The translations under genes were made by a program, and so were the position numbers. A stretch of DNA of 63,991 nt, the filler included, from Licmophora abbreviata (taxonomy: Eukaryota), in NCBI GenBank assembly GCA_900291995.1. It is 12 parts of 12 records of this genome, joined end to end, with 100 filler letters (N's around TTAATTAATTAA, not from the genome) between each part and the next. Parts side by side here need not be neighbours in the genome. Positions count along the whole stretch, not along the records: positions 46,711 to 51,457 come from OLMU01003124.1; 11 more parts are not named here. One strand, written 5' to 3'. Of this stretch, positions 15,710 through 63,991 are shown in pieces. The notes under the pieces are model-generated. The model did no database searches, was not told where the DNA came from, and saw only the letters and a program-made list of their open reading frames with translations. How positions within the stretch are numbered: the first letter of the stretch is position 1; the number at the start of each line of letters is the position of its first letter.

Positions 15710-16104
15710 AGAACGCTGTCTCATCGCAAAATTAGACGTTTATTTATGTGCTATTGAACAACATTAATTTTGTTTATTCAAGTCGCAGTTGTCTGGCAGA
15801 ACTGTTTTCGAAAGGCGCTGATACCGTCCAAATCGACCACGTACATGCCGTTTCCACATCGTGCTTGGATCTCTGGAATCGACAGCCCACCCTCGCCCAC
15901 AGTGTCACTTGCACTGTGTCNNNNNNNNNNNNNNNNNNNNNNNNNNNNNNNNNNNNNNNNNNNNTTAATTAATTAANNNNNNNNNNNNNNNNNNNNNNNN
16001 NNNNNNNNNNNNNNNNNNNNATGATGATGATAGATTGCCCCTTGGTTATTGTTTCTCTTTTGTATTTGCTTCGCCGCTCGCAGCACTAGTGCTTCGTTCT
16101 GAGA

Positions 16105-23306: not shown

Positions 23307-23648
23307 AGTCGACGGGTGGTGTTTTTCGTTCTATACGTTCGCCGTTGCTCCCCTGCTGTCATGGTCCGGTGGCGTCATACTGTGACGAATGTCGTGTGTA
23401 TTTTGAATTTTGCAATGACAAACATTCTCATTTGGATGGCAGCCGTGACTCGAGATTGTCCGTCGTCCGTTTTCTCATAATAACCCGGACATTGTGACGT
23501 GTTCTTTGGCGCGCGCAATAGCCGAGATGAGGTTTCCCGCCATCACTGCAAAACATGGCGTCCGTGTCATCGAGCAGCAGCTGTTCGCTTCCGTTCTCTC
23601 TCTCTCTCTGTATTTTGCCTTTATAATTCTCGAGTCCGAGTACGAAAC

Positions 23649-24753
23649 CATGACTTTACGTTCTCATCCGACCGAAAAGCCGAAACGGCAAAGAAGGACG
23701 GCGACATCCCTCATCACGTGCCTGACAGCGGCCATCGCCTCTAGCTCGACTATGCAGCCTGTCCATGCCTTTGTCGTCGCTCCTTCCGCACTGACTACTA
23801 GTAGTCCAACTCGTCTCCCCTCTCCCTCTTCTCGGTCCATGACGACGAATTGGGAAGAGCTCTTGTACCACGCCGAGAGCACCGCCTCTGCCTTTGCACG
23901 ACAATCGCTCGACAACAATCCTGCCAATTTGGTCACGGCCCTCCCCATCATGTACGGCGCAGGCTTGTTGACGAGTATATCCCCCTGTGTCTGGGGCCTG
24001 CTGCCCCTCACGATGAGTTATATCAGTACAGCTGCAGGAGAACGTGCCGACAAGAAGGCCACACTTCCCACACTCTTCTTTGCAGCAGGACTGGCGTCGG
24101 TCTTTTGCACTTTGGGCATTGTGGCGGCCACAGTGGGGGGTGTGCTAGGGAGTACCACCACAGCGGACACTGTTTTGAGTGGAGTCGCAGTGACGCTTTT
24201 GTCCTCTGGAGTCTGCTTGGCCATGGGTCTTCAGCTACTCGACTTTGTCCAATTGCCATTGTTGAACTTGTCTGCTACTAGCTTTTCGAAAGGACCTTCC
24301 TCCGTACTCCAACAAGAAGAAGTACTGTTGGACAGCACGGGTGCAACTGTCGTTCTTGGTGAAACCAACGAGGATACCAAGAAAAAGCAACAAGAAGGTT
24401 CGCTCGTTCGAACTTTTTTACTGGGCGGCAGCAGCGCCCTCGTCGCATCCCCCTGTGCCACACCCGTTTTGACATCCATCTTGGCCTTTGTGGCCAACTC
24501 GAACGACCCGCTCCTCGGTGCTATACTGCTCTTTGGGTACACATTAGGCTACTCGACGCCTCTCTTGTTGGTGGCAGCCACGGGTGGACAAGCTCTGGCG
24601 AATCTCCGGGGCGACGATGGAATCTACAGCAAGTTTGGGCCGTGGGTGTCCCCATTGACGGGAGGAATCTTATTGTGGTACGGGACGAATGGACTCCTCA
24701 TGGCTGTCTTTGGAGATCCGTCTCTGGCTGGATTGGCACCGATATTATTGTAA
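23649..24753 (+). CDS. ccdA: Cytochrome c biogenesis protein CcdA (DsbD TM domain), plastid-targeted
   Basis: AGLLTSISPCVWGLLPLT and LVASPCATPVL. Bipartite presequence ..VHA-FVVAP. Confidence 0.9.
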
Positions 24754-33388: not shown

Positions 33389-36300
33389 ATGAGTCAACCC
33401 GCCCTGGACCAAGAGGAGCGTGAACCGGAAGAAACTGCTGCAAACACCATCATGACTTCTAGTTCCACTCCTCCTGCTGCTGCTCAAGAAGAAGAGAGTG
33501 CACTTTTACCGACTACTGCTCTGGATTCCCATGATACCTCGTACTCTCGCAGTTTGACTTCCGCGCAGACCTTCAAGGAAGGCGGGAATGCACACTTTTC
33601 CGCCAAACGATACGAACCAGCTCAAGTCAGTTACGAAGAAGGATTGAAGGAATGTGCACAGATACAAAGTACACAGAATGGGAGTAGCGACGCAGCAGCA
33701 GCGCTCCAGACGGCACTGCTTTCCAATTTGGCCATGGTCTTGTTGAAACGAAAGGACTACGAACAAGCTTTGCAACGATGTCATCAAGCGCAAGCGCTGG
33801 ATCCTTCCAATCCAAAAGGTGACTTTCATTGTGCTGTGTTCTTGGAGTTTTTTATATTCATTGTACCAACTTATTCTTGTTGTTGTTGTTGTTGTTGTTG
33901 TAGTGTACTATCGACGAGCCTTGGCCAGGGAGGGCATTTTCAATCAGTCTCAAACGACCAACAGAAACAACCACACAGAAACAGCACAGCTGGAGTTGTT
34001 GAGAGAGGCCATGGATGATTTACGAACGTGTTTGGAACTGTCCGACGAGGAAGATGCCGGTGCCAAGCAACATTTGAGACGACTCGAGGCCTTGGAACAA
34101 TCGAAAAGACCATCGTTCTCCTTGTCTGGATCCCTCCCTACTGCTGTCGTCACGTCAAATGAGACACAAACCAATGGTAGTATACATGCTTCCACAGCAC
34201 TATCATCCTCTACAACCAAACTCGATGCCATGCCATCGGCGCAACAACAACGAACTGATGTCGTTCGACTGCTCTTGGCACATGCCACCGCCTGCACACC
34301 CACCAAGCACGAAGCATACTTTTTGATTCAATACGATTGGTGGACCGACTGGTGTCGTCATGTCGACTTCTTTTACTGCATAGAAAATCCAAACAATCTG
34401 CAGGAACGGCAAGAGCAAATTTTGTCGTGGCTGCCAACCGGAGCGTGGCTGGTCGAATATGACGGCGATGAAAAGAAACAGCAGGTGCATTCGGAAGACA
34501 GCAGCGATGACGATGAAGAGGACGGATTTCCATTTCCCCGACAGCTAGACAACTCCAACTTGTTGCTATCCGGAAGGAGAACTTGGGAGAAGCATTGGTA
34601 TCCAGCACTCGGTGAAATGCCACGTTTGAAACCCAGCTTGACGAGAAGTCATGACTACGAAGTGCTGCCGCGGGAGGTCTATCATGCGTTGCGGTTCTGG
34701 TACGGTGAAGTGACGCCTCCTATCTGTCGACGCGTCGTCGAGTTCACGAAGAATGGCGAAAAACGACTGGTGCTACCATTGTACGCTTCTGACGTACTTG
34801 CACGAGGACGGATGGAACGGGAAACGGAAGGAAATAGATGTGGAGCATGCTTTGCTCCTTACGCCAAGGCGAGATGCAAACAGTGTATGGTGCGATATTA
34901 TTGCAATCGGAGCTGTCAAGAAAGTCATTGGGCGTTTCATAAAGCAGAGTGCAAGCAGTTTCGACTTGAGGGGAAAGAGTTGGACAACCCAAATTACAAC
35001 AACATAGCATCGAAGCGAGTACATGTGGGAGGCCGCGTTGGACTGCACAATTTGGGAAATACATGGTATGTTATCTGGTGTGCTGCGTTATGCAACAACG
35101 TGACATAGGCGAACTTTGTCTCACTTGATGCACTCGCCTTAGCTTTATGAACTCGGCGTTGATTTGCATGAGCCATGCGACGCCCCTCACGAGGCACTTT
35201 TTGTCGAACCAATTTCTCGCGGATGTCAACACTACGAATCCTTTGGGGACAGGTGGCAAGCTCGCCATGGCGTACGAGCAGGTCATCAAGGAGCTTTGGC
35301 GCAAGTCGTCGCCTGTAAGCCCCACTAGTCTCAAACGAGCGATTGCCATGTTTGCACCTCGATTTGCCGGTGTCAACCAGCACGATGCGCAAGAGTTCTT
35401 GGCATATCTGTTGGATGGACTCCATGAAGATTTGAATCGCATTCGAAAGGCTCCTTACGTCGTAACTCCTGATGTAACTGGGTCCAATATGCGTGTGGCG
35501 GGAGCGGAAGCCTGGGGTGCACATCGGCGTCGCAATGATAGCTTGGTGATGGACACCTTCTACGGTCAGTTCAAGAGCACTTGCGTCTGTCCCCAATGCG
35601 ACCGCGTTTCAGTTTCGTTTGACGCATTCAACCATGTGAGCCTGGAAATTCCGTCCCGGCTCAGCATGACGAGGACGATCCCCGTGTTGCTTTTCCCTGA
35701 CGGTCACGGCGCCGAAGCAGAGATTCCTGTACGATATGCGATCACTGTGCAACGTGGAGCGTTGGTAGGGGATTTGCGAAAGGGTCTGTCGGAGCTGTGT
35801 AGAATTCCCACAGCGTGTCTTGCATTTTGCGACGTGTACGAGCATTCAATTTACGAGATATTTCAAGATTCCAAGCCTCTCACTCTGATTCGAAACTCGG
35901 ACGTGGTTGCCGCATACGAAGTGAGTCCTTATACGAATGGTTCAGTGCATGCATTTTGCCATCACGTGCGAGTCGAGGACTCGACTAAAGGAGTCGACCC
36001 CGAATATGATGGCCTCGCGGCGCCTGACGAGACAGGAAATCGATTCGGATTTCCTTTTATGACTTCTTTTGGTGTCGAGAGTACCTGCATGAACGTCTGG
36101 GAGCAGGTGTGGCAACAAGTATCCAAGATGGCCGACGCAAGCACAGTGCGTGCCAGCCGAAAAGAAGATAGCCCCGAAAATTGTGTCAGGAACCTGCTTC
36201 AGATTCGAGTCGTTGATAGTCAGGGAAATGCGAGGCCTGTATTTCTAGACGATGCCGTCGGGGAAGAGGTCGTCGAAATGGATACACTTGACAAAGCATC

Positions 36301-37006
36301 GATACTCCCACCCAATTTGGACAACGTACTTGCTGAATACTTGGGTAGAGACTGTGCTGAGCGTTTCTTATTTCTGCGTTTGGAATGGCTGAACTCAACC
36401 ACAGAATTATTGACAATGGACGAGGCACGGTTCATGACACATTCTGAACACCCAAGTCTGGTGGAAGCCATCAAGAAAGAGAAAAGCGTGAACGGGAGAA
36501 GCGGCGTCTCACTGGACCAGTGTTTTGAGACGTTCACAAGACCAGAGCGACTGGATGAGCACAACAAGTGGTATTGTTCTGCTTGCAAGGATCACGTGCA
36601 AGCCATGAAAACGATGGAGTTGTGGAGACTCCCTAACATTCTTGTGGTACATCTCAAGCGATTTGAATTCAAGCACGCCTTGCGTCGAGATAAGCTTGAT
36701 ACGTTTGTGGAGTGTCCTTTGGAAGGACTCGACATGACGAAACACTGTGCATCGACTCGTGTAGGGCGCGACGCTTTTGTTGTCGACGGAGTTCCTGCTG
36801 CGTACGATTTGTTCGCTGTTACGAATCACTACGGTCGAATGGGTTTTGGCCACTATACTGCTTTCGCCCGGCGCTGGGACGAAGAGGGTTTGTCAAAGGA
36901 GTGGCTTGTCTTTGACGATTCGAGCGTTCAAAGCATGGGAACTGGCGATGGGGTGATAACTCCTGCAGCGTATGTTCTTTTTTACCGTAGGCGCATATTC
37001 CATTAG
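33389..37006 (+). CDS. Ubiquitin-specific protease with TPR, DUSP and MYND domains (USP4/15-like catalytic domain)
   Basis: TPR FKEGGNAHF..SNLA..KVYYRRA, DUSP YFLIQYDWW..DYEVLP..WYG, and MYND CGAC..CKQC..YCNRSCQ..HW..HK..C. Cys box GLHNLGNTC|FMNS spans intron 35066-35142. His box NHYGRMGFGHYTA. First intron is 33819-33903. Confidence 0.93.
33877..33901. repeat. (TGT)n microsatellite in the USP intron
   Basis: TGT run just before the acceptor site. Confidence 0.8.
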
Positions 37007-37044: not shown

Positions 37045-40000
37045 CTAAAATTGATTGTAGAGAAACAACGCTGCGATCTCTTTGCCACAATCGAGAGCTT
37101 CGTACACCGACTGCGCCTCGTCCAGCGACGCCCTTCTCGTTACAAGCCGTGAGGGTTGAATACGCTTTACAAGCTCCCACGTAAGCGCGAATCTTCGATT
37201 TTTAGTCCATATTCCGCGAAGCTCTGCGGGGATCTCACTGACTTGTGAGGTGCGAATCATTTTGTGGCTCCGATGGAAGTCAATCCCAAGCTTTAAATTG
37301 ACTTTTCCGTTGCCATACCACGACCCGACGATTGTCCGACCTCCCGAGCGGGTATTGTCGATGGCGGACTGAAGAGCCTGGGCGCTTCCGCTTATTTCAA
37401 CAGTCACATCAAAGGGCCCAGAGCGTGACGCAGAAGACGGAAGAATGGCCTGCGATGCCCCCATGTCAGCGGCTGCTGCCAATCTGTCAGGTATTGTGTC
37501 AAATGCAGTAATGGGAGCGATATGGTCGGCAAACGAAGGTTGTAAACGGAGAATCGCTGTGACAAGAAGACCGATTAGCCCCTGACCAAATACAGCAACC
37601 TTCTCTCCAGCTCTGACATGTGCATCGTGAACTAGTGACAATGCAGTCTCGACCGATGGCATGAACGTGGCGTCTTCGGGGTCGATACCTTCGGGAACCA
37701 CCTGAATAGCACCTCGGTCAACCAGCGCATGGGACGCATGAGGTGAGAAGCAAAAGACAAGTCGCCCAAGTAATCTTTCTGCATCCGTGACATCCGAGCC
37801 ACACCGAGTTACGCGTCCCACGAGGCTGTAGCCATACGCAAGTGGATAGGTCATTCGTTCTTCCGCCATTCCTTCTATATTCAAATCTAGCGCGGCATCG
37901 TCGAACAACCCCTTGAATATTTTCAGCTCGGTACCGGAACTTATCAAAGATGCAACTGAAGTAACTGAAATAAGAACGACAAGGCTTGAGTCAGAAGATG
38001 GCACGAGCTGACGCGCTACACACAAGTCAACTTTACCTTCGACATCATTGGGCTCTAGGTCTCTTGATCTCTTGTAGGATGTATGGATTGTCGTGACTTT
38101 GTATGGTGATGTAAACTGGATCTCTTGTATAGATCGTGCACCGCCCAATCTTTCTCCGGTCCTTTCAGGCACAGCGCTTAAATATTGAGCTTCTTTTCTC
38201 ACCGCTGTGTCACCTCGCAACTTGAATAGCAGGTCGACATTGGTAACATGAATCTTCGGTCGGTTACGACGGGCTCTGCGGATCCAGTCAGTCGAGTCCC
38301 ATTGGCTCTTCAATATTTCCAGTCCTGCGGTCGTCCCAAAGAAGTAGAGCATGGTCTCCCACAAATAACCATTCTTGTTGGGATCGATCCACCAATTCGA
38401 CGGTCCCTTGCGAAGTAACCTCGCTCCATGACCCTCGAACGCCGTGATGAGTGCCAATGGATCCAAGTTGTGCCCGTGTTTCTTACTCAGCGCATTGGAA
38501 TACAGACGAAACGCTACCGTGTCGGATGGTAGACGACGNNNNNNNNNNNNNNNNNNNNNNNNNNNNNNNNNNNNNNNNNNNNTTAATTAATTAANNNNNN
38601 NNNNNNNNNNNNNNNNNNNNNNNNNNNNNNNNNNNNNNACTCAGCGCATTGGAATACAGACGAAACGCTACCGTGTCGGATGGTAGACGACGCCTTGTCA
38701 CCGCAGAACTATCATTCTTCTCCTCTCCAAACGGTTCCGGTGGCCAAAACTGAGTCGTCCCCGAAAATGTGATGGGAAAGTACACGAGTGTATTGTCATC
38801 GGTCGCTTGGTCACTACTCTTTGACGTTCGCTTGATGAACGCCAACAGATCCTGTACAAGCCGATATGGGTCCATCAAGTCAGCAAAGCAACAGCCCACA
38901 ATGAGATGTGGCCTCGGAGGCGGTTCATCGTAATGTGCTCCACTGGCAATGGTAGCAAAGTCATACATGTGTAAGTGCACCGTCACGGGGTTAGTCACAT
39001 GCGCAAAGACGAGGGCATCATCATGGTTCTTGTCCTGTGGCACAAATCCCAACCTCAGCATGGTCTCTCGGCATGCCGCCAACAAGCCAATATTCGGTTC
39101 ATATGCGTGGTACACAATCGTGTCACCAGTGGCTTGTTCCCCGCCCGTGTCACTATTGAGCAATACTTCCGCCACCAACGGTCGCTTGTCACTCGTACCC
39201 TTCAACAGGAGCTCCAACATCGACAAGGCTCCTGCTCCAAGATCCACAATACAAAGTGTATTCTTTGTAGTGTTGCAAGTGTGTCGTCGTAGGCGTTGTT
39301 CGTTCACGACATGTTCAATCATGTCATTCCATGTCGATGCATGTATCGACTCGGCATCGACTTTGTTTTTCGCAGCAAGATATCGGACATCGGAAAATGT
39401 GTAGTTCCTATCGATATGTCGGAAGGCAAGATTCAAAGCATGTTGCAATGTTCTGCCATCATCTTTATCATCACCATCACCACGATGACACACCCGAATG
39501 GCATCGATACCAACACTTCGAGCCGCGTGCACGTTGCGAGAGGAATCGTCCAAGAGGATAATGCGATGAGTGCGGATGGAGTGCTCTGCGATCACCTTTT
39601 GATAGAATATGTTTGGATGTACCTTGGTGGGATATTCCATTGTCGTTTGGTCCTCATCATCATTATCACTCTGGATCAAATCGGGGGTCAATAGTCCGGT
39701 CCAGGGCACACGCGAGAGTCCCAACGCACACAATACTTTTCGTACATGCCAAGACGGAGAGTTGGATGCCAAATAGACAGGACATGGAAGGCTTGGACTG
39801 CCATTGGTCTCAAACCACGAGCGGAGTTCGGAGCAAGATATCATCTTTGGGAGCGCCGTATCTGAATGGAAATCGTTATCGGAATGCGTGTAGCCTGTCG
39901 TCGTCACTGTATCTTGATAGGAGGACGATCCTTCCTTTTTAAAAGTACAATGCAACAATCCAGAAACGTCAATCGGTGTATACACTTGTTCGTAGTAGTC

Positions 40001-40911: not shown

Positions 40912-42252
40912 ATGGACGACGACAACGCCATCCAGAACGAGGCGCCTCTGGAGTCTGGCGTGTCTCCAGAAGAGCAGAACGGCTCTTCTTCTACTTCAGC
41001 CGTGATCGGGAGCTCCGCCATGCGGCCGGTCTTTCTTGGAAATCTGAATTCGAACTACACGGCCGAGCAAGTCCAAGAGATCTTTGAGCGTCCCATGCTT
41101 CCTCCTTCTCTGGAAGACGCAGACAGCTCGTTTCCTCCCATCCCCGTCGAGAGGGTGGACCTAAAGAGAGGATACTGCTTCGTCTTTCTCAAAGACGCTC
41201 AGACGCAGCAAGACAAGGAGACGGCCGAGCGATTCGTCTCGGACATCAACGGCATGTAAGCACCCACCACACGATTGGATTCACGTCTTCGTACAGTTCT
41301 ACGTCTCGTCACTACCTGCGAAAAACGTAAATGACCCGACTCGCCCTGTGGCAGTGGCCATCCAACAGACGACCACCACGACATGCCTCATTCACTCCTC
41401 CATAAAAATCATCAGTTTTCGTCGTCCCCTTCGTTCGCTCTCTTCGACACAACACAGATCTACACAAAATCATCCTATATACTGACTTCCCTACTCTTCC
41501 TTCTTCTCCCTATCATACTACTCTCTACCTCTTGCTCTCTCTCTCTACCAGGGCCGTCCCCAACGTTTCCAACGCGCTTCGCGCCGAGTTCGCCCGCGGC
41601 GATGGCCGTACCAAGCGCAAGGAGGACGAGCGTCGCAAGAGGATCCAGCCCAGCGACACGCTCTTCGTCGTCAACTTTCACGAAGAAACCACCAAACAGG
41701 AAGACTTGCGCATGCTCTTTGAACCCTACGGAGAACTTGTTAGGATTGACATGAAACGCAACTATGCCTTTGTGCAGTTCCGAACCATTGAGGAGGCCAC
41801 GCGGGCCAAGGAAGTTACCAACGGAGGCAAGTTGGATCAAAGTGTCTTGACGGTGGAGTATGTTGCGAGGNNNNNNNNNNNNNNNNNNNNNNNNNNNNNN
41901 NNNNNNNNNNNNNNTTAATTAATTAANNNNNNNNNNNNNNNNNNNNNNNNNNNNNNNNNNNNNNNNNNNNCGTCGAGGACCTCGCGACTACGGGCGTCGC
42001 GACGATCGTTATTACGATCGCCGTTCTCCTCCTCGGTACCGAGGACGGAGTCGTTCTCGCAGTCGTAGTCCTCCGCCGCGGTATCATCGCAGTCGTAGTC
42101 CACCCCCGAGGCGGGATTCTTATGATGATGATCGTCGTTACTCGGATCGAGGAGGACGCAGTAGTCCGGATGGATATCGGGGACGTGGACGATCGTCGGA
42201 TCGTGACTCCTACAGTCGTGGTGGAGACCGGGATCGTGGGTATCGTGCGTAG
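40912..42252 (+). CDS. SR-type splicing factor with two RRMs and an RS domain
   Basis: RRM1 PVFLGNL..KRGYCFV, intron 41256-41551, RRM2 TLFVVNF..KRNYAFVQF. After the gap it reads RGRSRSRSRSPP..GYRA stop. Confidence 0.9.
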
Positions 42253-42704: not shown

Positions 42705-43951
42705 TTATTGGCGCCGCAGTTTGGACGAGCAAGTCATTCCTAGGCGATCCTGTAAGGAAATGTATGTTTCATCCGACATGTGCAGGATGTTCTTGCGAAA
42801 GTTGTTGACGGCCTCACGAACGTACGTGCCATAGTCCGGGATGTCGAAGTCGTCGGCAACGCGCATGGTACGGATCGAAGTTGGTGACGCGCAGGGCTGG
42901 CACGGATCGAACTTGTCTGCTGCTGTAGACGCTGCATCTTCCAAGGATGTCAGGGCCGACCACCCTTGCATTCCGAGACGAAGTTTCCCAATGATCTCTT
43001 CCATGGATGTGCGGCCGCGGAGGCCTTCTGGAGTTGCGTCGTCGTCGTCAAAAGCTTCTTCGAGATTTCGTGTGAGCGACACCGGCAGTGGACTGGTCAA
43101 AAGGTCCGTGATGCTCTTTTCCTCGCTGCCCGGTGACATTGAATCCATCGTCCACACCTCTACAGCATCCGAAATCTCGCTGACGGTATCGAACGCGTCT
43201 TCGAGTTCGTCCGTCGGATTCAGACTGAGACTCCACGTGCCCTTGGACGATGCNNNNNNNNNNNNNNNNNNNNNNNNNNNNNNNNNNNNNNNNNNNNTTA
43301 ATTAATTAANNNNNNNNNNNNNNNNNNNNNNNNNNNNNNNNNNNNNNNNNNNNCACTCTTGTGCTTTCGGAGCGAACGAAAGGCACGTTTGACGAGTCCT
43401 ACGGTGGTGCCATCGCGGCGGCGGTCACCCCGCTTGGAAGGATGTTGCGGCTTTGATCTTCGACGACGCATCGGCCGGGAGATGCATCTAGCGATCCGAC
43501 GGCCTCTCGCCTGCTGCCTGCTTCTCTTGTTAACCGTCATCTCATCACAAAGCGACGAAGATATCGAGTCGTCCTTAATGTTCGCAGGTCCCGGCACGCA
43601 GAGAGGATCTTGAAAGTACTGATCGAAAAGCAGCAAGGACGACTCTTCACTCTTGATAGACTGACAATCAAAAGGAAGGCTGGATTCATCGTCAAAGGAA
43701 GACTTTTCCTTACGACCCGCGTCAGACGCTATGTCGTCCTCGGAATACATCATGCTCCCAGATGCCGTCGACGACGACACGTCCAAGCCGATCAAGGACG
43801 ACACGGCCGAGACGATTCCCGACGATGTTGTGGAGATTTCGTCTTCTTTTCCTGTTTCTCGGCTTCCGTGACTGGTTGCTTGAACGTATGCTCCTCTCAT
43901 GTATGCCATGGATGCCTCGCGGTCCAAGGAGGCCGCCGTTGTCGTCGCCAT
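42705..43951 (-). CDS. Hypothetical Ser-rich protein interrupted by a gap
   Basis: Same-strand open frames on either side of the gap at 43254-43353. No recognisable motif. Confidence 0.5.
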
Positions 43952-46447: not shown

Positions 46448-46752
46448 AGTGCCATGCCATACTTGGACTGTCACATCATGGATAGAGCGTGACGTTGAGA
46501 GATTGTTGCTTTCCTCTTGCATCATCGAACGCTATTCTATTCTACCATTAAATCATTTCAATTCACAGAACACATGCGATATGGTCAGCACATTACTTAG
46601 CGAGACTGCCNNNNNNNNNNNNNNNNNNNNNNNNNNNNNNNNNNNNNNNNNNNNTTAATTAATTAANNNNNNNNNNNNNNNNNNNNNNNNNNNNNNNNNN
46701 NNNNNNNNNNCATTACTTAGCGAGACTGCCCGCTCTTACTGTAAAACCCTAG

Positions 46753-49116
46753 CTAGTACGAACAAGAGTCTCGCAAGCCTTCTTTGATGCGAGCAGGTGC
46801 TCGTGCGTACATGCGACAGAACTCCACTGCATCTATCCTGGATGGAACGACTTGATGGAGCCAAATGTCTATGTCTTGGACTTCATCATCACTGGGTAAG
46901 CCCGCATTCGACTTGCTGAGAATGTCCACAAGTTCGTCAGCATTAATCAGTCCTGTTCCTTCCTGGTCGACACACGCAAATATTTCTAGCAGTCCGTCGA
47001 CTTCGCCTAGGGGGATCTTGGCTGCTGCTGCGGCAGCTTCTCGTAAGTCGTCGGGAAAGATAGGAGTGGACGCAGACTTGAAGTGCGGAAGAGCAAGGGC
47101 GCTTCGAATTAATGCTGGTGCCGATCTGGGAAGTTCGTCGGATTCCACAATGACTTCAGTGGCTCCTGCGGATTGTAGAGATTGGGCTTCGGAACGTGTC
47201 TGGGCGCGAGTGTAAATGGGAGTGTCGCCGAAGGATATGTGAAGTCGTGACGTTGCCGAGAGAACAAGCTCGTGCTGCTCGTATGTCACAAATATAGCCG
47301 TCGGCTGGGAGACACCACTCGATCGAATCACTTCTGGATTCGACGGGTCGCCGTACAATACAAGGACATCAGACGTCATGACAGAATCAAACATGGCAGG
47401 GTCTGAATCAAACACAACCAAGGGAGGAAAGCGATCTGGCGAAGCAGCTGACCTAGCAGTGAGTGCAGTGAACAGGGACTGTCCAATCTCCCCGAATCCG
47501 CACACGACAATGGAATTCGCAGCAACGACGCCTTGCTCAACTTCAATTGGCTCCCCGTCTTCCAGTCTGAGTTTCGGTTTGACGAATGGCGCAGACGCAG
47601 CCGCAGCAAGTTCTCCCAGGATTGGGGTAACACTCATGGTGATGAGAATGATTGCGGTCAAGAGACCACCGAGTTCGGGCGGCAAGACTTCCAACTTCTC
47701 TGCCGCCGCGAGCACCACAAAGGCGAACTCGCCTCCTCCTGCCAACAGGAACGCGACACGTATGCCCTCGGAAACTGAGAGTCGGTTAGGCTCGAATTCC
47801 CTTGGGATACGTGTAGCGAACCCCAAGGTTACCGCTTTGATAGCAGTCAAGGCTAACGAGCCAGCAATGATTGTGGGCCATTCTTGTACCACCAATTCTG
47901 TATCGAAGCTTGACCCCGCCCCCATGAAGAAGATTCCTAGAAGAATGCCCTTGAAGGGGAGTATATCCGCTTGTATCTGAGACCGATAGTTAGTATTGGC
48001 CAATAGCATACCAGCTGCAAAAGCACCTGCTGTATCCGTCAGTCCAAAGGTTTTTGCAATTGCCCCCATTCCAACCGAAACCAACAAAGAGAGTGCCACA
48101 AACGTCTCGGTTGACCGTGTCTGTGCCACAAGTCGAAATAGACGACTTAGTAGGCGAGATCCCAAAAATACGACAAAGCCGAAGCCCAGTGTGGCCTTGA
48201 TAGTTAGGAATCCAATAGCGGCATAATCAGTCACCCCTTGTCCCACAACATACGGCATCAGAACTAGCAATGGAGCAACGAAAAGATCCTGCAGGAGAAG
48301 AATGGAAGTAGCCGCCTGGCCTGAGTCTTCTTCTTCCCATTCGCGTTCCTTGAGCACTGGAAAGACAAACGCCGATGTCGACAGCGTTCCTGCGAGTGCC
48401 AAGACCAAGGCTTCTATGGGATTTCGCACGTCAATCAGTCCCGCATCCAGTGGAACGAAACGTTGAAACGTATACGGATCAACGAGTAGGATACAGGCAG
48501 TAAGAGCTCCTGTACACAACGCGATCTGGGCGCACCCTAGTGGGAGATAGTTCGCAAGCTTAGCCAACCGTGCTTTCGAAACTTCCAAGCCTTCAGAAAA
48601 CAGCAGAAACAGAATCCCAAAATCTCCAAGCTCGACGTCTGCCTCGGTGTTCGAAAACTCATCCAAGCCGTGAGGACCGAGCAGCGCACCAGCCAGCAGG
48701 TAGCCTAAAATTGGAGTTACACCCACTGTTCGAGCCACAGGAGTCACGATCACGGATGCGAACAGAAAAACCAGCAAATCTCGGCCAATTGAGGCTAAAA
48801 CCATGCTCGTGGCCGCCTCGGGTACTCGAGCGCCGCCAATGGTCAGCGCCTGTGAGAGTTCCTTTCCCAGGTCACTGAACGGGATGTCATGCGGGAGGAG
48901 AGAATACACATCTGGGAAAGCTGTGAGCGATGTGTGGGTTCGACAGCTCTCTCCTGGTCTTGTTGTCACACATGGCGACAGAAAGGAGGATGCCTGATGT
49001 CTTCGTATTCTTCGTTCGGCCAGGTGAGGAACTTGAAAACTGTGGCAAAATCCGACGACCAACGCAAAATCGAACCATCGCTTCCGTCTCCGCCCATAGT
49101 GTGCCCTCGACCTCAT
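46753..49116 (-). CDS. KEA3: K+/H+ antiporter (CPA2, KEA3-like) with RCK/KTN domain and C-terminal EF-hand
   Basis: Plastid-type presequence (..CHS-FQV), LGDFGILFLLFSEGLE, ILLLQD, GGEFAFVV, VVCGFGEIGQ and EF-hand DQEGTGLINADE. Confidence 0.88.
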   Translation of the reverse strand: MRSRAHYGRRRKRWFDFALVVGFCHSFQVPHLAERRIRRHQASSFLSPCVTTRPGESCRTHTSLTAFPDVYSLLPHDIPFSDLGKELSQALTIGGARVPEAATSMVLASIGRDLLVFLFASVIVTPVARTVGVTPILGYLLAGALLGPHGLDEFSNTEADVELGDFGILFLLFSEGLEVSKARLAKLANYLPLGCAQIALCTGALTACILLVDPYTFQRFVPLDAGLIDVRNPIEALVLALAGTLSTSAFVFPVLKEREWEEEDSGQAATSILLLQDLFVAPLLVLMPYVVGQGVTDYAAIGFLTIKATLGFGFVVFLGSRLLSRLFRLVAQTRSTETFVALSLLVSVGMGAIAKTFGLTDTAGAFAAGMLLANTNYRSQIQADILPFKGILLGIFFMGAGSSFDTELVVQEWPTIIAGSLALTAIKAVTLGFATRIPREFEPNRLSVSEGIRVAFLLAGGGEFAFVVLAAAEKLEVLPPELGGLLTAIILITMSVTPILGELAAAASAPFVKPKLRLEDGEPIEVEQGVVAANSIVVCGFGEIGQSLFTALTARSAASPDRFPPLVVFDSDPAMFDSVMTSDVLVLYGDPSNPEVIRSSGVSQPTAIFVTYEQHELVLSATSRLHISFGDTPIYTRAQTRSEAQSLQSAGATEVIVESDELPRSAPALIRSALALPHFKSASTPIFPDDLREAAAAAAKIPLGEVDGLLEIFACVDQEGTGLINADELVDILSKSNAGLPSDDEVQDIDIWLHQVVPSRIDAVEFCRMYARAPARIKEGLRDSCSY

Positions 49117-49411
49117 GAGAATATTCTTTGCGTTGTAATGTCATCGCCAAGCCACTCCATCAACTTCGGAAGGGTCTGGCATCACATCGCAAAGCACACA
49201 CCACGGCTCGGCATCACTGCGATGTTGAGATCTGACGTACGTGAATTTTTGCCGCCGCGCGTGCGCCGTACAGACTCCGCGAGCTTTCCGAGTCTTGCAT
49301 TGCATTCCTGGTGCATGCTTGCCATCGATCGCATCTGCTAAGCGACTACCAGTACGAACAATCTATCATACGTAGACCTAGCACTACAGTGACTTACTGT
49401 ACTCATTTGAG

Positions 49412-50700
49412 CTATACTTCTGGAACACGGAGTCCACACGCCACGAGAAACAATACAACAAAACCGCCTTGCACCGCGTCAGCGATCGAGGGCGTCATGT
49501 GAAAGTTACCGAAGTGCAGTTGAATGGGAGCCAAAACGAATGTCTGTGCCAGCATGTCCAAACCCTTTCCCGAAGTGCGTTCCCCAGAACGCGACTGTTT
49601 TGCCGCCAGGATGCACATGTTCGGTCCCACATGGTGAGTGCACATGGTGGTAGGAAACGCAATGTGATGAAAGGCAATCGATAACACCGCAGCATTCACC
49701 AGATAGACAACCAACAGTAACGTCACATCCAACAGTGATACATCACCTCGTATCAACGTTCCTGCTTTGATGGCGACGTTAAAGACTTCCATAGATACAG
49801 CATCAACCCTGCAAGCATGATGGCACCGAATCGATCGGACAACTGATGCATATTCTCTCTCATTGATTGGTAGTAGTGCAACCACTTTTGAGCTAGTGCT
49901 TCAGCCTTGAGTGTCTCCACGGAAGCGTACTGTTGATTTTGTTTCTTTTGTGCTCGCATTTTTGGCATTGCCACTGACGAATGGGCACTCTTGTGCAGTC
50001 TCAATTCGGCCGTCACTTCTCCTTCTACGAGCTCGAGAGGCATGACAATAACTCGAAAGCTCAGTGTGGCAAGTAGAATACTTGTGTAAATAGTCAATAT
50101 GTTGATCAGCACCGACACGACGTAGTAAAGTATCAGAACTGGCGGTACCCTTTGTTGCCGGTTGACAAAGAAACTGCACTCGCAAGCGGTCGAGAGCAGT
50201 ACTGCCAACCCATAAACCATTGTAGTTTTCTGGGACACGCCATCTTCCACGAACATTCGCATGTGTTGTTGACAATTTTCAATCGATCGATCGTCTGTAA
50301 AGTATCCGAGTGCTGTATGAATGGGTGCAACAAGCCAGAAACTCAGTAGGAGAGGCAACAGTAGGAGGTCCAGAATTCCAAACAAGTCAATGATCTTTTC
50401 CTCGCCTTTTGTGGAGTTGGAAAGTTCGAAGTCAGCATGACACACGTAGTAGCCCGCTTCCAAGAGAATGAGCAGTACGACTACTGATATCCTTATGATG
50501 ATGCGTAGGATCTGGGAGGAGGTTGAATCTTCAGAAGCTTCTTCTTCTTCTGCTGAACGAAGCGCGAGGAGGGGTCGCCGCTCGTTGTCGTTGGTCTCTG
50601 GTCGAAGCTGTCGCCGACTCCCGGTAAGTTCTACAGCCGCTACTTCAATTTTCAGAATCAATTCTAAAATCGAGCGGGGGAGGGTCTGAAGATAATCCAT
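49412..50700 (-). CDS. Seven-TM membrane protein, candidate gustatory-receptor-like/7TMIC (frameshift near 49799)
   Basis: Adding one base joins ORFs 49753-50706 and 49412-49885 (AGLML|VSMEVFN) into about 429 aa with seven hydrophobic segments. Confidence 0.6.
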
Positions 50701-51029
50701 TGTCACTGTAGTAGCGTTAGACCAAAAGAGGCTTTGATCGCCTCATGGTGTAAGAGTACAGCAGTTCGGGTTGACATCACATTTGTGAGAGATTTTTTGC
50801 GACGCCAGAAAAGATAGTGCCGCGGCGCGCGCACGGGGGTGCGCGTTCAGATGCCACAACGAGACAGTTTTGTGAGTGCGACCAACACATCAACGCCCCA
50901 TGCCACATTGAACATGGGACGAGCGGCGACAGCAGTGAGAAGTTGGGTGTTCACGGTATCAGGGCACAAAGGCATAATTACCCGCCCTCATCGATAGGAC
51001 GATAGTTTTCTACTCATTGTCCCCTCATT

Positions 51030-52382
51030 ATGACACAAGTTCAACTTTTCCTAGTGTCCGCCCCCAGCACCAAACCTGAGTTTCTCGCAACCATTGAATC
51101 AGTCAATCACATCAGTCATGGTGATACGGGCGACATCCGCTCCGACGACGACGACCTACTCGCACGTATACGCTCTCCTCAGCTTGTGTTGGAAGGTTAC
51201 ACGCGCGATGCCTGGGCATGGAAGCCACATCCATGTTGGACGAACGTGACAGTAAAGTCAACGGATGGTCGTAACAAGGTTCCAAGATTCATCCAGTACC
51301 TGAAGGACCGACAAAAGAGCGCATATGCGAAAATCAAAGCAAAAAGTGATGATAGTGGCGGCGGTGGACTGCTGTGTGTCACATATATTCAACCGAAAAC
51401 AAAGGGTGACGATCCAAATATATTTCACTGCAAGATCGCGTGGGATATTCCCAAAATNNNNNNNNNNNNNNNNNNNNNNNNNNNNNNNNNNNNNNNNNNN
51501 NTTAATTAATTAANNNNNNNNNNNNNNNNNNNNNNNNNNNNNNNNNNNNNNNNNNNNTGTTCGTTGGTAGTCGCATCCAACAACAAAGCAACACTCCCAT
51601 CGACGACTGCTTCTTCTGGCAGCAAACAGTCATCAGCATCGAAACTATCTGCACAAGCAGCTCCCGCATCAAAGTCATCGGGGATGCTAGGGAATCTCTT
51701 GGCTGGTCAGGCGAGAACTTATGAGCAGTACCGAAGCTCCATACCTGTACGAAAGGCTTCCAATGAAGCTGCTACTGGTAATGCTGCTAGTAGCGACTCT
51801 GCCCCGAATGCTGTCGGCAAGACGTCGCAGGATGTCTTGAACGCTTTTCGGGCGTCTTTGGAGCAAAAATTTCTCGATTTTGACATTTCTAGTGACAACC
51901 ACCTGCAAATCCCCATTTCGCTGGCGACACAGACCAAGAGTATTGTAGGGGAAGAAGAAAAGTCCAAAGTCACCATGGAAGTGCTTAAATACATTGTCTA
52001 CGAGCAAGCCGAAGAAATCAATGAAGAGTGGGTGGCGCACAAGGAGCCGGGCGAGTTCATGGATGAAATTGTCATGAGTGTTTACAAAGAGGCGCCACCA
52101 GACGTGCTGGAAGATGTGCAGCGTGCCGACTTACCGGACGAAATGCGAGGACAGCAGCGCGCGTTACAGGAAGCGTCGCAACGACGCGTTGCGTTGAACG
52201 AGGCCAAGCTGGATGCGGAGCGAGAACGAAACGTGGCATTGTCGTTGAATCAGGATGATGAAGAGTTCGCGGTGTTGAATGTCAACAAGCGTGATCGACG
52301 AACGATTGAAGAGATCGAACGGGAAATGAGGGGAACGGATGAACCAGACGGAACAAGCAAGAAACAAAAAATGTCGAAGTGA
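51030..52382 (+). CDS. Hypothetical nuclear protein with a possible SPOC-like N-terminal domain; interrupted by a gap
   Basis: RFIQYLKDRQKSAYAKI resembles the SPOC helix. C-terminal KRDRRTIEEI and an NLS-like KKQK. Confidence 0.55.
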
Positions 52383-56017: not shown

Positions 56018-57199
56018 CTACGGCTTTCCAGCGGGCTGCTGCTGAGTCACGCAGTGCACAAGGCCGCCATCTTTGTACAACTCGACAAAGTCAATGCCAA
56101 CAATCTCTCGGAAAGGGTAGAGACCCTGCAAGACCTTCTTGGCGACAGCGTCGTTCGGGTCGTCAAAGACAGGGACGATCACAACATCATTGCCAACGTA
56201 GTAGTTGATATAGATGCCAAAGTCGTTCACTCCTGGGACTTTCTTTTGAGTAATTGGCAGATGAACCAACTTATAGCTGTCGCCATTGGCATTTTTAGCT
56301 TTCTTGAGAACGTCGTACTCGGTTGGATTGATAAAGTCTTGTCGACGATACGTAACAATAGTGTCTCCATTGGCGAATCGTGCAGTTCCGTCAATGTGAT
56401 CATCTGTAATATCGAGACCTTTCTCACCTTTCAACCAGATAAAGTTGGTGACACCAAGGTACTTGCGAAAGTACGCTTCAGCATCTGCTTGTTTCCAACG
56501 TCGATTCCGATTTCGGTTGAGAATGGATGATCGTTTCGCCATGAGAGTGCCATTCCCATCAACTTCGACTGATCCCCCTTCATTTGTCATGCGAACCTTA
56601 GTCAGGGGAAGACCAGTGGCACGGGCCACGTCAACGGGGATATAGTCGTCATACCAGAAGTCGGCCTTGAAACCCCAACCGTTGAACTTCCAGTCTTCGA
56701 CCCGAAGACGATTGTTCTTGTCGTAGACAAAAATCGGTCCGTTGTCTCGTACCCAGACATCATCTAGAAAAGAGATTCACGATCGAGACACAGAAGGAAT
56801 GAGTGAACGTATGCAATCAGTGGCAGCACACGCCTTCACGGTGGACATTTGCTTGCTCGTACCTGTTGGCCACTCGTAAAAGTCAAGCTGTGACATGTCA
56901 AGACCACGAGCCGCCAGCTTCTTTTGTACGCGTGTCCTTTCTTTTTTATTGTAGAGAATAATGTGAACTCGCTCGCCATGATGGAGTGCTTCGGTCAGCT
57001 GAATCCAACTTTCTTCGTAGCGTTTCACGTGCTTTGCATCCCATCCGTAATCATGTGGCCACTGGAGCCAAGTTCCTTCGTGAGGTTCCTCCTCGGAAGG
57101 CATGTAGTAGATATTGTCGGGATCTTTGATTGGAGGAACACGCACAGAAATGACGGCAGTGCAAAATGATACGCAAAGAAGAACGGAAGGGATTTTCAT
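56018..57199 (-). CDS. aguA: Agmatine deiminase / PPAD-family amidinohydrolase with a signal peptide
   Basis: MPSEEEPHEGTWLQWP. Intron 56862-56764 joins WPT-DDVWVRDNGP. Also EGGSVEVDGNGT, TDDHIDG, YINYY and GGLVHCVTQQQP. Confidence 0.92.
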
Positions 57200-57727: not shown

Positions 57728-59352
57728 ATGGAGCAATTTGTGCTTGGTATCTTTCAGGAGCATCTTTCCAAGGTACGATATCCTATCTTGCACTTTGTGG
57801 ATGCTAGACTTGCGCTTTCTTTCAGACTTCTCATTTTGTCTCCCTTCTGATGTCTTCATTTCTCTAGTTCATTGTTGGCTTTCATAAAGAGCAAGTCAAT
57901 GCCAACTTACTGAATGGAAAGGGCGAAATCACGGACGTCGAGTTGAACTGCGACTTTCTCAATGGCGTCTTGAAAACCATTACCCCCTACGTGCAGTTGG
58001 AGAGTGTCCACGTTTCCAAACTTTCATTTCACGTCACAGCATGGGCCAATATACGGAAAGCTCCCATTCTGGTGGATGTACAGGATGTCCGTGCTAGTTT
58101 GGTTGAACCGCTCGACTATCTGGACAAGACAAAACGACGGGGTATGCAGCAAATAACGCAAGCAGAGTTCACTGACCTGATCCAGAAGGGTATCCAAAAG
58201 CTACGAGGCTCCTATAACCTCTTCGATCGCATTGTGGACAATCTGGCGGTTGAAATACGGAGTGTCCACATTCAGTTTCAGACTCGTGGCAAGTTCAAGA
58301 CTACACGGGTGGGCGACTGGACGCCGCCGACGCTGCTCGCGACGCTCAAACACATCCGGTATTTTAGTGTCGACGAGTTTGGCAATGATGCGTCACCAGA
58401 AGAAGTCTGGAGACACAACAAGCACCCTCATGGACAGCCGTCACATTTGCGGACCTTTACGATATTCAAAAAACTGTCCATGCAATGCAGTGTTGGATTG
58501 TGTCGTCCGGGGGAATTGGAAAATATGCCGCCGCCTTTGGTGCGGGAGGCAAATGTTGTTGTGCATTTGTGCTTTAAAAAGAGACTCCGAGATGCTGCAA
58601 TTCTAGCGGTTCAATGCGATGCGAGTGTATCGCGGGCCGAAGTTCACGTGGATCAAGATGCGGTACCCATGTTGGCGCACGCTTTGGCCGGCATGCAATA
58701 CTGTCTTGCCAAGGACCGGGCATTTGACGATCCTCTTGTCCCCGAATCACACGACCCTATGACTGTTGAAGTAGGATTCGAAGCGCCATTGGGATCAGCT
58801 CCAGAAGTAGTGGAGGAAGTGGCCGAACCGATAGAGAAAATTGAGGAAGGGGATGCCGAGAGTGGAGAGGACGAAGCGGCTCCTTCAATACCAACGACTG
58901 GCGACATGGAGGACAATGCGTCCGACATTTCATCTTTCAATGATGATGAGTTTGATATGAGTATCGATGGCGACAGTACTCATTCGGGCATGTCCGGTGC
59001 CAAGGCAGCCACCGGCGGGGATAGACCCATTCTTCTGCTACCCAGCGGTATCGTCATCCAGGAGGCTCTTACGATCACGTTGTCGGTAGAGCACTGCACT
59101 ATGAGAGGTACCTATCCGACTAAGCTTGATGGATATGTACAACTAACCNNNNNNNNNNNNNNNNNNNNNNNNNNNNNNNNNNNNNNNNNNNNTTAATTAA
59201 TTAANNNNNNNNNNNNNNNNNNNNNNNNNNNNNNNNNNNNNNNNNNNNAACTTCTGGCTGCTTCTGAGCGAAAGGGTGTCTTGGAGGCGACGTCGGCTAC
59301 AACACCTTTAGGGCGTACGGGGGAGGAGCAAGACGCACATCGACCTGACTAG
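57728..59352 (+). CDS. Chorein_N (VPS13/BLTP-like) domain protein; large internal part missing in the gap
   Basis: Exon 1 is 57728-57772, intron 57773-57867, giving MEQFVLGIFQEHLSKFIVGFHKEQVNANLLNGKGEITDVELN. Also IVDNLAVEIRSVHIQF. Confidence 0.65.
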
Positions 59353-60308: not shown

Positions 60309-60796
60309 GGTGTTTATAGACGATGTACTGCGTTAGAATACGGAAGAGGTAGTAGTCTGTTGCAGACGACGACGGCCCAGATTTCAGTTTGTGAACGCTG
60401 TGTGGTGTGCGGCTGTGCGGCCTGGTCGCTCGTCGTAGGATTTCTACGCCGCAAGTAAGGAGTAAGAAGATCGTGACTCAGACTTCGAAATGAGTCATGA
60501 ATGAAAACATTGGAATCATCATTCTATCTCACTTTTTTCACGNNNNNNNNNNNNNNNNNNNNNNNNNNNNNNNNNNNNNNNNNNNNTTAATTAATTAANN
60601 NNNNNNNNNNNNNNNNNNNNNNNNNNNNNNNNNNNNNNNNNNCTAGTTCTGAAGGTAACATCGGAGGAAGGGAATGCGTCAGCATCGCGATAAGAGTGTC
60701 AACGATGGACGACATCCTCACACGACGCACGGCTTCTTTGCTGTGGTCGTTCCTCCCACCAGTGTCTTCGTTGAGACCACACAGACCATCCTTAGG

Positions 60797-62510: not shown

Positions 62511-63991
62511 ATGAGAGCCTGGTTCTCTAGTCTCCTCAAGCTGAAAACGGTCGTCTTTCTCGCTGCCGCCGTCAGTAATCTCGGCACCGCTGCAGCACGT
62601 AACTTTCAAAAGGGCGTGCCTCTTTACTCGGCACAGTCGTGCGACGCGCTCACTCCGCACACGTCCTCGCAATGGTGGTATTCNNNNNNNNNNNNNNNNN
62701 NNNNNNNNNNNNNNNNNNNNNNNNNNNTTAATTAATTAANNNNNNNNNNNNNNNNNNNNNNNNNNNNNNNNNNNNNNNNNNNNAATCTCGGCACCGCTGC
62801 AGCACGTAACTTTCAAAAGGGCGTGCCTCTTTACTCGGCACAGTCGTGCGACGCGCTTACTCCGCACACGTCCTCGCAATGGTGGTATTCGTGGTCCACG
62901 ACAACTGGCTTCACTGGTAAAAAACGTTCTTTGTGTGATCGTCCCGAGCAAGCGGTAAGCAAGATAAGGGATGCCGGGATGGAATTCGTTCCCATGTTTT
63001 GGGGCTCTGTTCCTTCTCTACCGCTCGATAGCGAGACCGAGACGAACCTACAGGAGGCAAGCTACTTGCTGACCTTCAACGAGCCTGACCGCACAGATCA
63101 GTCCAATATCCTGCCCGCAGATGCGGCGCAGCTGTGGCCTCAAATCGAGAAGATCGCGGGTGACTACGGTCTTGAACTGGTAGCTCCATGCACGACGGGC
63201 AATAGAATAGGACTGGACTGGTATGACGAGTGGCTCGGGAATTGTACTATGCTGTACGGTTCAAGCTCTTGCGTCTTTGATTACACGTGTGCACATCTTT
63301 ATTATCAGCCCTGGGATGATGCCCTTGGATCCTGCGGCCCTGACGTGGTCGAATGGGCCTGCATTGGCAACCAAGCAATCAAGGCGTCCACAAGGATCAA
63401 CCAGTGGTATGATAGGTACGGAAAAGAGATGTGGCTCACTGAGTTTGCCTGTGGGTTTGGCATCGAAGGTGAAACGGGCTGCCCCGAAGCACGGCAGTTA
63501 GCTCTTATGGAGCAAATGCTGCCGATACTGCACGACAATCCAGCTGTATTTCGCTACTCTTGGTATAGTGCATTCAATATCGATTGGGTGCACAACAGTC
63601 TCAATGAGCTGGTCTGGGACGTATCTAAAGCACAGATCTGTCGCAACACAGAATGGCTCAACCACTTCGGAACTCAAGACGGACATTTTAAGGACTTGCA
63701 CGAGTGCATTACAGCCGCTGATGATAGACCTGACTGCGCGTCGCCACTTTCACTGTCAATGAGCAATAGCAACTGTTTTTGCGCCACCGATAGATGCGAT
63801 GTCCTGGATAGCGCTCACAGTTCAATGTGGACCTTCAAAGAGGTCGGGCCAAGGAGTCCATCTGCCTTGACGCCCCTGGGTGAGTACTACAACAACTACG
63901 ATGGAGAGACCGAAGAAGAGGACGCCGGTGAGGATGGCTTTCGGTCGCCTGCACGCTGCTTCTCAGGACACACTACTGTTGTGGTAAGGGG
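62511..63991 (+). CDS. Secreted GH128 (Glyco_hydro_cc) beta-1,3-glucanase-like protein with a Cys-rich insert and the start of a probable Hint domain (runs off the window)
   Basis: 62577-62683 duplicates 62784-62890, so the gap is false. The merged frame is open to the window end: WWYSW, EFVPMFWG, LTFNEPD, WLTEFA, RYSWY, LTPLGEYY, then CFSGHTTVVVR. Confidence 0.85.

Follow-up and report, generated by a model that had tools for sequence, protein, structure and literature searches.

The superfamily of ion channels with seven transmembrane domains (7TMICs) brings together the taste, or gustatory, receptors (GRs) and the smell, or odorant, receptors (ORs) of insects, the gustatory-receptor-like proteins (GRLs) of animals and protists, and the plant DUF3537 proteins (PMC7746228; PMC9998090; 10.1101/2023.08.30.555482). 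In the parts of these three papers drawn on here, its members are described as having seven transmembrane helices (TM1 to TM7) in a typical packing, an N terminus inside the cell, outside loops that are shorter than the inside loops, long TM4 to TM6 helices, and a TM7 that is split into TM7a and TM7b. A re-entrant loop, TM0, is not used as a criterion by the authors in the corresponding part of the preprint (10.1101/2023.08.30.555482). Since that preprint, from 2023, describes 7TMICs of unicellular eukaryotes by the thousands, proteins of the kind considered below are already known.

In this study, we analyzed a 63,991-nucleotide (nt) stretch of DNA (the window) made of 12 joined contigs from the Licmophora abbreviata assembly GCA_900291995.1. 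On the minus strand, at 50700..49412, it carries a gene that is split over two reading frames, with 302 codons in the first (frame A) and 127 in the second (frame B). The open reading frame (ORF) in frame A encodes the protein P0001, the final 13 of whose 315 residues are an out-of-frame tail, and the ORF in frame B ends in the protein P0002 (Table 1). We conclude that this is one gene and, with a high degree of probability, a member, probably from a diatom, of a small family of marine protist proteins within the 7TMIC superfamily. As assembled, the copy in the window is interrupted by a frame error, for which an assembly artefact and a recent mutation are about equally good explanations.

The family and its predicted fold

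A phmmer search with P0001 against 1,835,955,588 representative proteins identified 20 relatives at E<=1e-3, four of them at E<=1e-10 (best, 6.8e-18), with lengths of 290-624 amino acids (aa). A cluster look-up of 10 of the relatives traced every one of them to ENA, Logan, or JGI and none to NCBI or UniRef; this is a small family without a name, known so far from environmental sequence data only. Other searches added little: a word-index protein search returned no match with P0001, only P0004 and P0019 with the 21-row family alignment (A1), and only the query itself with residues 335-415 of P0005, and tblastn searches of metagenome contigs with P0001 and P0004 found no relative. Within A1, conservation measured as mean pairwise identity is highest in the break between TM7a and TM7b (0.56) and in TM7b (0.53), and falls to 0.24 in TM1, TM3, and the first inside loop (IL1). 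A peak of conservation around TM7 is the pattern described for the superfamily in the part of the preprint that treats it (10.1101/2023.08.30.555482). The alignment also contains an echo between two motifs: TM2 has SFxFxAPLHxALGY at its inside end (50308-50330, minus strand), which resembles FLLAPIRxHVGNF at the end of TM7a (49493-49530, minus strand), and the two stretches are also weakly paired by BLASTP.

The fold of the family was predicted with AlphaFold2 (AF2) for the relative P0004, using the 21 sequences of A1 and no templates (predicted local distance difference test [pLDDT], 81.6; predicted TM-score, 0.82). The AF2 weights used here presumably predate the first solved 7TMIC structure. 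In the model, TM4, TM5, and TM6 each extend over 51-53 residues, as expected of the inward-projecting anchor domain of the 7TMICs, and TM7 is divided into two helices by a break (Table 1). When the model was compared with the PDB by Foldseek, all 16 matches at E<=1e-3 were insect GR, OR, or Orco structures, and the next family appeared at an E value of 0.18 with a TM-score of 0.10. The structural match reached Z scores of 17-22 for the receptors, compared to 9.5 or less for everything else in 48,161 chains. An AF2 model of P0001 (pLDDT, 81.2) covers the N-terminal part of the window protein and includes two long helices of its own, at residues 187-241 and 249-308; for this part, as for the intact relative, insect GR, OR, and Orco structures are the only matches to the fold. 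The TM6 to TM7 region of the window protein was placed by alignment only, the split TM7 being modeled in P0004 and the window aligned to it column for column. A helix near the N terminus of the family falls in the range that aligns to the GR and OR structures, which starts at model residues 2-13, and in these models it may correspond to TM0.

By the positive-inside rule only, the predicted topology is N-in/C-out: the 10 full-length members carry on average 17.8 lysine and arginine residues per protein in the proposed inside loops and 1.2 in the outside loops. The outside loops of these members, EL1, EL2, and EL3, are very short (means of 3.1, 5.4, and 5.0 residues). On the inside, IL1 has 28 residues, and the inside extension of TM4, IL2, and the extension of TM5 together have 87. 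The family thus shows all of the published 7TMIC features listed above, namely, the seven helices, the N-in orientation, the relative loop lengths, the long TM4 to TM6, and the split TM7. An earlier note on this DNA had anticipated much of this. The alignment with the Orco/GR fold, the N-in arrangement of seven helices, and the split of TM7 all hold up, the first and last of them in the P0004 model, where TM7a, break, and TM7b are delimited. Of the seven hydrophobic segments that the note had counted, the Kyte-Doolittle profile detects four in the frame-A part and two in the frame-B part; the seventh, TM5, is weakly hydrophobic and straddles the frame break. The models contain seven helices.

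Sequence signal and the possibility of convergence

At the sequence level, neither P0001 nor P0002 was assigned to a Pfam family, and neither matched 7tm_7, the insect GR model (PF08395), at E<=10. Across the family, however, 7tm_7 was matched by 4 of the 21 members at E<=1, whereas every other Pfam family was matched by at most two. Three of these matches were examined in detail and share one register: P0011 residues 226-480 to profile positions 106-341 (E, 2.3e-5; 24.3 bits), P0004 residues 189-401 to positions 118-319 (E, 3.2e-4; 20.5 bits), and P0005 residues 31-345 to positions 18-297 (E, 5e-3; 16.6 bits). The 7tm_6 model had no match in the family at E<=1. DUF3537 likewise matched 0 of the 21 members at E<=1, in a copy of Pfam in which the presence of that model was not separately verified; no link to DUF3537 was seen, and the signal points to 7tm_7 instead. 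Language-model features of P0004 led to arthropod and nematode clusters of the ESM Atlas (scores, 0.94-0.95), and its ten best family-bearing matches all agree with the top match in family or clan; the named clusters are 7tm_7, Trehalose_recp, DUF267, or SRR.

An alternative to common descent is that the likeness of fold is convergent and that an unrelated seven-helix protein has come to resemble the 7TMICs. Benton and Himmel warn, in a part of their paper, that some structural matches may be of this nature (PMC9998090), and sequence identity between the family and the solved receptors is only 8-14%. Several other observations also weigh against placing the family in the superfamily. No match to a Pfam model exceeds its curated cut-off: the 26.6-bit gathering threshold of 7tm_7 is reached by 0 of the 21 members, the best score being 24.3 bits. 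A search of PDB sequences with the family profile recovered no GR or OR chain even at E<=10, and nothing at all below an E value of 0.33. The ESM recognition value of 2118 falls short of the 2300 mark, so that line of evidence is weak. The whole-fold test was carried out on P0004, which is 28-40% identical to the window protein, and not on the window's whole protein, and the family alignment is shallow at 21 rows. Finally, the TM7 motif of the animal proteins, (T/S)Yhhhhh(Q/K/E)(F/L/M), is absent: when the alignment is read by eye, at most one of its four positions is matched in any member. In the corresponding region of TM7b, most members have EYANA...WF, where only the Y matches, and the window protein has PSIADAVQGGF, where only the S does. 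This bears out the earlier statement that the animal TYxxxxxQF motif is missing here. The motif has been called "diagnostic, but not definitive" in a passage of PMC7746228.

Convergence is nevertheless improbable. It would have to account for the large gap in Z scores between the receptors and all other chains, for a match that spans the whole length of the protein and includes the rare split TM7, for three independent subthreshold matches to 7tm_7 in one register, and for language-model features that lead to the same clan. Membership in the 7TMIC superfamily is the reading that we carry forward.

One gene read in two frames

Comparison with the relatives confirmed that both ORFs belong to a single gene, as the earlier note had proposed, since they are collinear with the relatives across both frames. 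All 24 family proteins used in tblastn searches matched the window at this locus only, 17 of them in both frames, and a frame-B piece was obtained for 20. P0002 matched the two best relatives, P0003 and P0004, over their last 93-101 residues (E, 2e-15 and 3e-19). Conversely, in 14 of the 20 phmmer matches to P0001, the best stretch ends at query residues 298-307, where the break lies. Identity to the relatives is 33-40% for frame B and 21-29% for the frame-A part.

The same pair of ORFs could arise without any frameshift, either from a pair of distinct genes or from exons on both sides of an intron. Canonical short introns do occur in this genome, an example being the one at 35066-35142 (77 nt, GTATGT...TTAG). 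At the locus itself, we evaluated 40 frame-keeping GT/GC-AG candidates, none of which has a good donor. The only candidates with a strong donor, four that all start from 49978, would shift the conserved stretch from W273 to F291-G292 out of frame. In addition, the relatives align straight through the junction with no space for an intron; in the tblastn match to P0016, the pieces in the two frames adjoin at 49792 with the consecutive residues 272 and 273. The intron models are ruled out by their poor donors and by the conserved W...FG stretch, and we regard an arrangement of separate genes or spliced exons as extremely improbable. A single gene with a break in its frame is left as our reading of the locus.

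The position of that break can be narrowed considerably. The residues W273, F291, and G292, nearly invariant in the family, are encoded in frame A as far as 49825, and frame A reaches its stop at 49755-49753, so the error must lie within 49756-49824. We scored repairs against a hidden Markov model (HMM) of the family built from 19 relatives alone. The read-through protein scored 305 bits (E, 6e-92); the best site for a one-base repair was 49790-49795, and all sites from 49776 to 49799 scored within about 5 bits of it. A 16-base repair was about equal to a one-base repair (305.0 and 306.0 bits, respectively). Codon-usage scores, for which nine ORFs elsewhere in the window served as the training set, favored frame A until the scanning frame was centered at about 49845 and frame B once its center had reached about 49800. 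Adding one base at 49793 gives a read-through product of 429 aa. The earlier note had placed a one-base repair near 49799 and expected about 429 aa; given the flat scores from 49776 to 49799, its site agrees with the HMM, tblastn, and codon-usage estimates within resolution, and both peptide strings that it quoted were found in the translated ORFs. A further observation concerns 49796-49811 on the minus strand, where the same 15-16 bases read LMLYL in frame A and VDAVS in frame B, similar to LFLFV and VDTTS, which follow one another in the relatives. This would suggest the loss of a 16-base direct repeat at the break, but such a loss scores no better than the one-base repair and is not supported.

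Origin of the frame error

Whether the frame error arose in the assembly or in the organism is about an even question. The first explanation is that it is an artefact of low-coverage metagenome assembly and that the gene is intact in the organism, where it would encode a working 7TMIC of 429 aa. The second is that the error is real, which would make the copy either a pseudogene of recent inactivation or a null allele within the population; pseudogenes and null alleles are common in chemoreceptor families.

The state of the coding sequence favors an artefact. The gene sits on a short piece of 4747 nt (46711-51457) among the 12 joined contigs. Frame B is open throughout its 162 codons, its codon usage is equal in quality to that of frame A, and it retains the most conserved motifs of the family and the higher of the two ranges of identity to the relatives. 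Against real inactivation, the 429 codons are otherwise free of stops and frame errors and the conserved motifs have been preserved, which means that the gene can have been inactivated only very recently.

Seven public sequencing runs were listed, marine metagenomes and one presumed RNA run. Contigs from four runs gave seven pieces nearly identical to the locus, none of which covers 49300-49878. Over the coding region, these environmental contigs differ from the window at nine positions, eight of them third codon positions and five of them silent. Differences that fall mostly at third positions also fit an artefact, and they hint, weakly, at selection that maintains the gene in close relatives; against giving this sign much weight, the variants come from single contigs at depths of 2-5.5. 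The 5' side shows population variation in one environmental contig (run X1), which has a 6-base insertion upstream of the gene, at 50782, and C>G at position 50706, shortly ahead of the start codon.

The site of the break and the history of the copy point the other way. The frame break is present in the sequence as given, it does not lie in a homopolymer run, and there are no one-base indels over the roughly 900 bases shared with other contigs, so the assembly is not rich in indels. In the family tree, the window protein lies at the end of a long branch (1.7 compared to a median of 0.89), which argues against an artefact and for real inactivation; in a copy that is broken, a branch of this length could mean relaxed constraint, a point against our main reading of the locus. 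The TM5 region is 4-5 residues shorter at the break than in most relatives, and the equivalence of the 16-base and one-base repairs would fit a small deletion. On balance, we give the assembly artefact nearly an even chance, and a real lesion is a serious possibility that falls somewhat further below even. A frame error that exists in the organism would mean a dead copy: as assembled, it would yield a product of 315 aa that lacks TM6, TM7a, and TM7b, and a product without these helices could not form a pore.

Genomic surroundings

The 968 N in the window belong to 11 identical linkers, each consisting of 44 N, TTAATTAATTAA, and 44 N, which join the 12 contigs, in the manner usual for binned metagenome assemblies, and act as six-frame stop spacers; gene order across linkers is therefore without meaning. 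The contig of the receptor-like gene holds only two other features, a K+/H+ antiporter-like gene and a cut ORF (Table 1). The commonest phylum in the nearest ESM Atlas clusters of the antiporter is Bacillariophyta (scores, 0.97 and 0.91), and these clusters are the sole lead within this analysis toward a diatom origin.

Genes of clearly eukaryotic type (RING, zuotin, Sec6, and DUSP-MYND-UCH) occur on other contigs of the window. At 33747-37006 on the plus strand, an ORF with DUSP and MYND domains and an ORF with a UCH domain are joined by the 77-nt intron 35066-35142 into one ubiquitin-specific protease gene. Contigs other than that of the receptor-like gene also carry an agmatine deiminase-type PAD_porph gene (56018-56776, minus strand) and a gene for a DsbD/CcdA-type membrane protein (23449-24753, plus strand).

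Table 1. Features of the receptor-like gene, helices of the P0004 model, and neighboring elements (window positions unless given as residues)
Feature	Position	Strand	Remarks
Whole gene, read through	49412..50700	-	Start codon 50700-50698; stop 49414-49412; 429 codons with one base added near 49792
ORF A	50742..49753	-	Met at 50700; stop 49755-49753; encodes P0001, 315 aa
ORF B	49900..49412	-	Open for 162 codons; stop 49414-49412
P0002	49798..49415	-	128 aa, last 128 codons of ORF B
Frame-A part, residues 1 to ~303	49793..50700	-	N-terminal helix, TM1-TM4, variable inside loop, first half of TM5; from P0001, phmmer ends, AF2 model
Frame-B part, ~126 residues	49415..49792	-	Second half of TM5, TM6, TM7a, loop, TM7b, short C terminus; from P0002 matches, tblastn
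Zone holding the frame error	49756..49824	-	Missing base or length change of 3k+1; best 49790-49795
N-terminal helix, residues 3-26	50623..50694	-	Conserved in family; P0001 model
TM1, residues 59-95	50416..50526	-	Kyte-Doolittle, P0001 model
TM2, residues 101-131	50308..50400	-	Ends in conserved APxHxALG motif; Kyte-Doolittle, alignment, model
TM3, residues 154-181	50158..50241	-	Kyte-Doolittle, model
TM4, residues 187-241	49978..50142	-	55-residue helix reaching past the membrane part; Kyte-Doolittle, model
TM5, from residue 249	49751..49956	-	Conserved W..Y..R.D.H..S..FG; cut by frame error; alignment, model
TM6 and inside extension, P0002 22-67	49598..49735	-	Aligned to P0004 345-395
TM7a, P0002 78-93	49520..49567	-	Aligned to P0004 399-414
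TM7a/TM7b break, LHFGNFHMT	49493..49519	-	Most conserved stretch of family; alignment, mean pairwise identity 0.56
TM7b, P0002 103-124	49427..49492	-	Presumed pore-lining; 4 residues after; alignment, identity 0.53
P0004 N-terminal helix	residues 14-37		AF2
P0004 TM1	residues 109-134		AF2
P0004 TM2	residues 139-168		AF2
P0004 TM3	residues 191-218		AF2
P0004 TM4	residues 226-278		AF2
P0004 TM5	residues 288-339		AF2
P0004 TM6	residues 345-395		AF2
P0004 TM7a	residues 399-414		AF2
P0004 break	residues 415-427		AF2
P0004 TM7b	residues 428-449		AF2
K+/H+ antiporter-like gene	46753-49140	-	Na_H_Exchanger, TrkA_N, C-terminal EF-hand; same contig as receptor-like gene
Cut ORF	51006-51457		Same contig as receptor-like gene
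Linkers	8104-8203, 15921-16020, 21025-21124, 38539-38638, 41871-41970, 43254-43353		
Linkers, continued	46611-46710, 51458-51557, 59149-59248, 60543-60642, 62684-62783		

Possible function of the family

The fold suggests how intact members might work. By analogy with the insect receptors, they would assemble into tetramers through the inside extensions of TM4 to TM6 and through TM7a, TM7b would line a central cation pore, and a small ligand would open it by binding within the bundle's outer half. The scales are evenly poised on whether the family forms an oligomeric ion channel of this type, and a chemosensory role is a more tentative proposal; a candidate chemosensory or ligand-gated channel, as the earlier note put it, is also what we infer from the insect proteins. 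Against assigning any such role, we know of no function established for any 7TMIC outside animals.

A bolder possibility is that diatoms and their relatives keep GR-like ligand-gated cation channels as cell-surface chemoreceptors for pheromones, nutrients, or cues from grazers and bacteria, and that these channels are nearer in sequence to animal GRs than to plant DUF3537. We consider this proposal unlikely as a whole, but it would have clear consequences. To our knowledge, no receptor is known for most of the chemical cues to which diatoms respond, and such channels would provide the chemical sensing of diatoms with its first candidate receptors. A lineage nearer to the GRs would also run contrary to expectation for the 7TMICs of stramenopiles, alveolates, and rhizarians (SAR) and might reflect either an ancient divergence or gene transfer. 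More immediately, a family with the insect receptor fold in a probable diatom provides concrete genes to express and record from, for which intact relatives such as P0004 are better candidates than the broken copy in the window.

Comparison with known systems

The main texts of PMC7746228, PMC9998090, and 10.1101/2023.08.30.555482 do not mention diatoms or stramenopiles and use "SAR" once, and their supplementary lists may contain the family; in the part that was searched of the 52 supplementary files of PMC9998090, no diatom genus name was found. Among the papers searched, none linked diatoms with 7TMICs or with DUF3537. With this family, the known range of the superfamily gains a stramenopile-type lineage.

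The cited papers count the plant DUF3537 proteins among the members of this superfamily, and Benton and Himmel suggest, in a part of their 2023 paper, that the SAR 7TMICs would be closer to these plant proteins (PMC9998090). The family gives no Pfam match to DUF3537 (0 of 21 members at E<=1), and it lacks the long third inside loop (IL3) that part of PMC7746228 describes for the plant proteins: TM6 to TM7b spans only about 60 residues. The GRLs of unicellular eukaryotes, or Class-A Euk7TMICs (PMC7746228; 10.1101/2023.08.30.555482), resemble the family, judged here by their published description. The size is in keeping with theirs (350-500 aa), the protein comes from a protist, and the family shows the characters quoted in the parts of these papers that describe the group, including a largely unrecognizable TM7 motif and few introns.

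Among solved structures, the match to insect ORs and Orco (6c70, 7lic, 8v00, 8v3c, and 8z9a; 8-13% identity) is slightly weaker than that to insect GRs (Gr43a, 8jm9/8zdz; BmGr9, 8vc2/8uvt; Gr64a, 8jme; 9-12% identity). The family differs from the GRs in its host, which is a protist, and in being known from sequences and models alone. No member passes the 7tm_7 gathering score, and the TY...QF motif of GR TM7b is missing. In its place, the family has motifs of its own, APxHxALG after TM2 and APIRxHVGNFE between TM7a and TM7b, together with an acidic segment, disordered, that separates TM1 from the N-terminal helix. With the insect GRs it nonetheless shares the same order of helices, the long TM4 to TM6, the split TM7, and a very short C terminus, and the GR model 7tm_7 is its top Pfam family, matched in one register.
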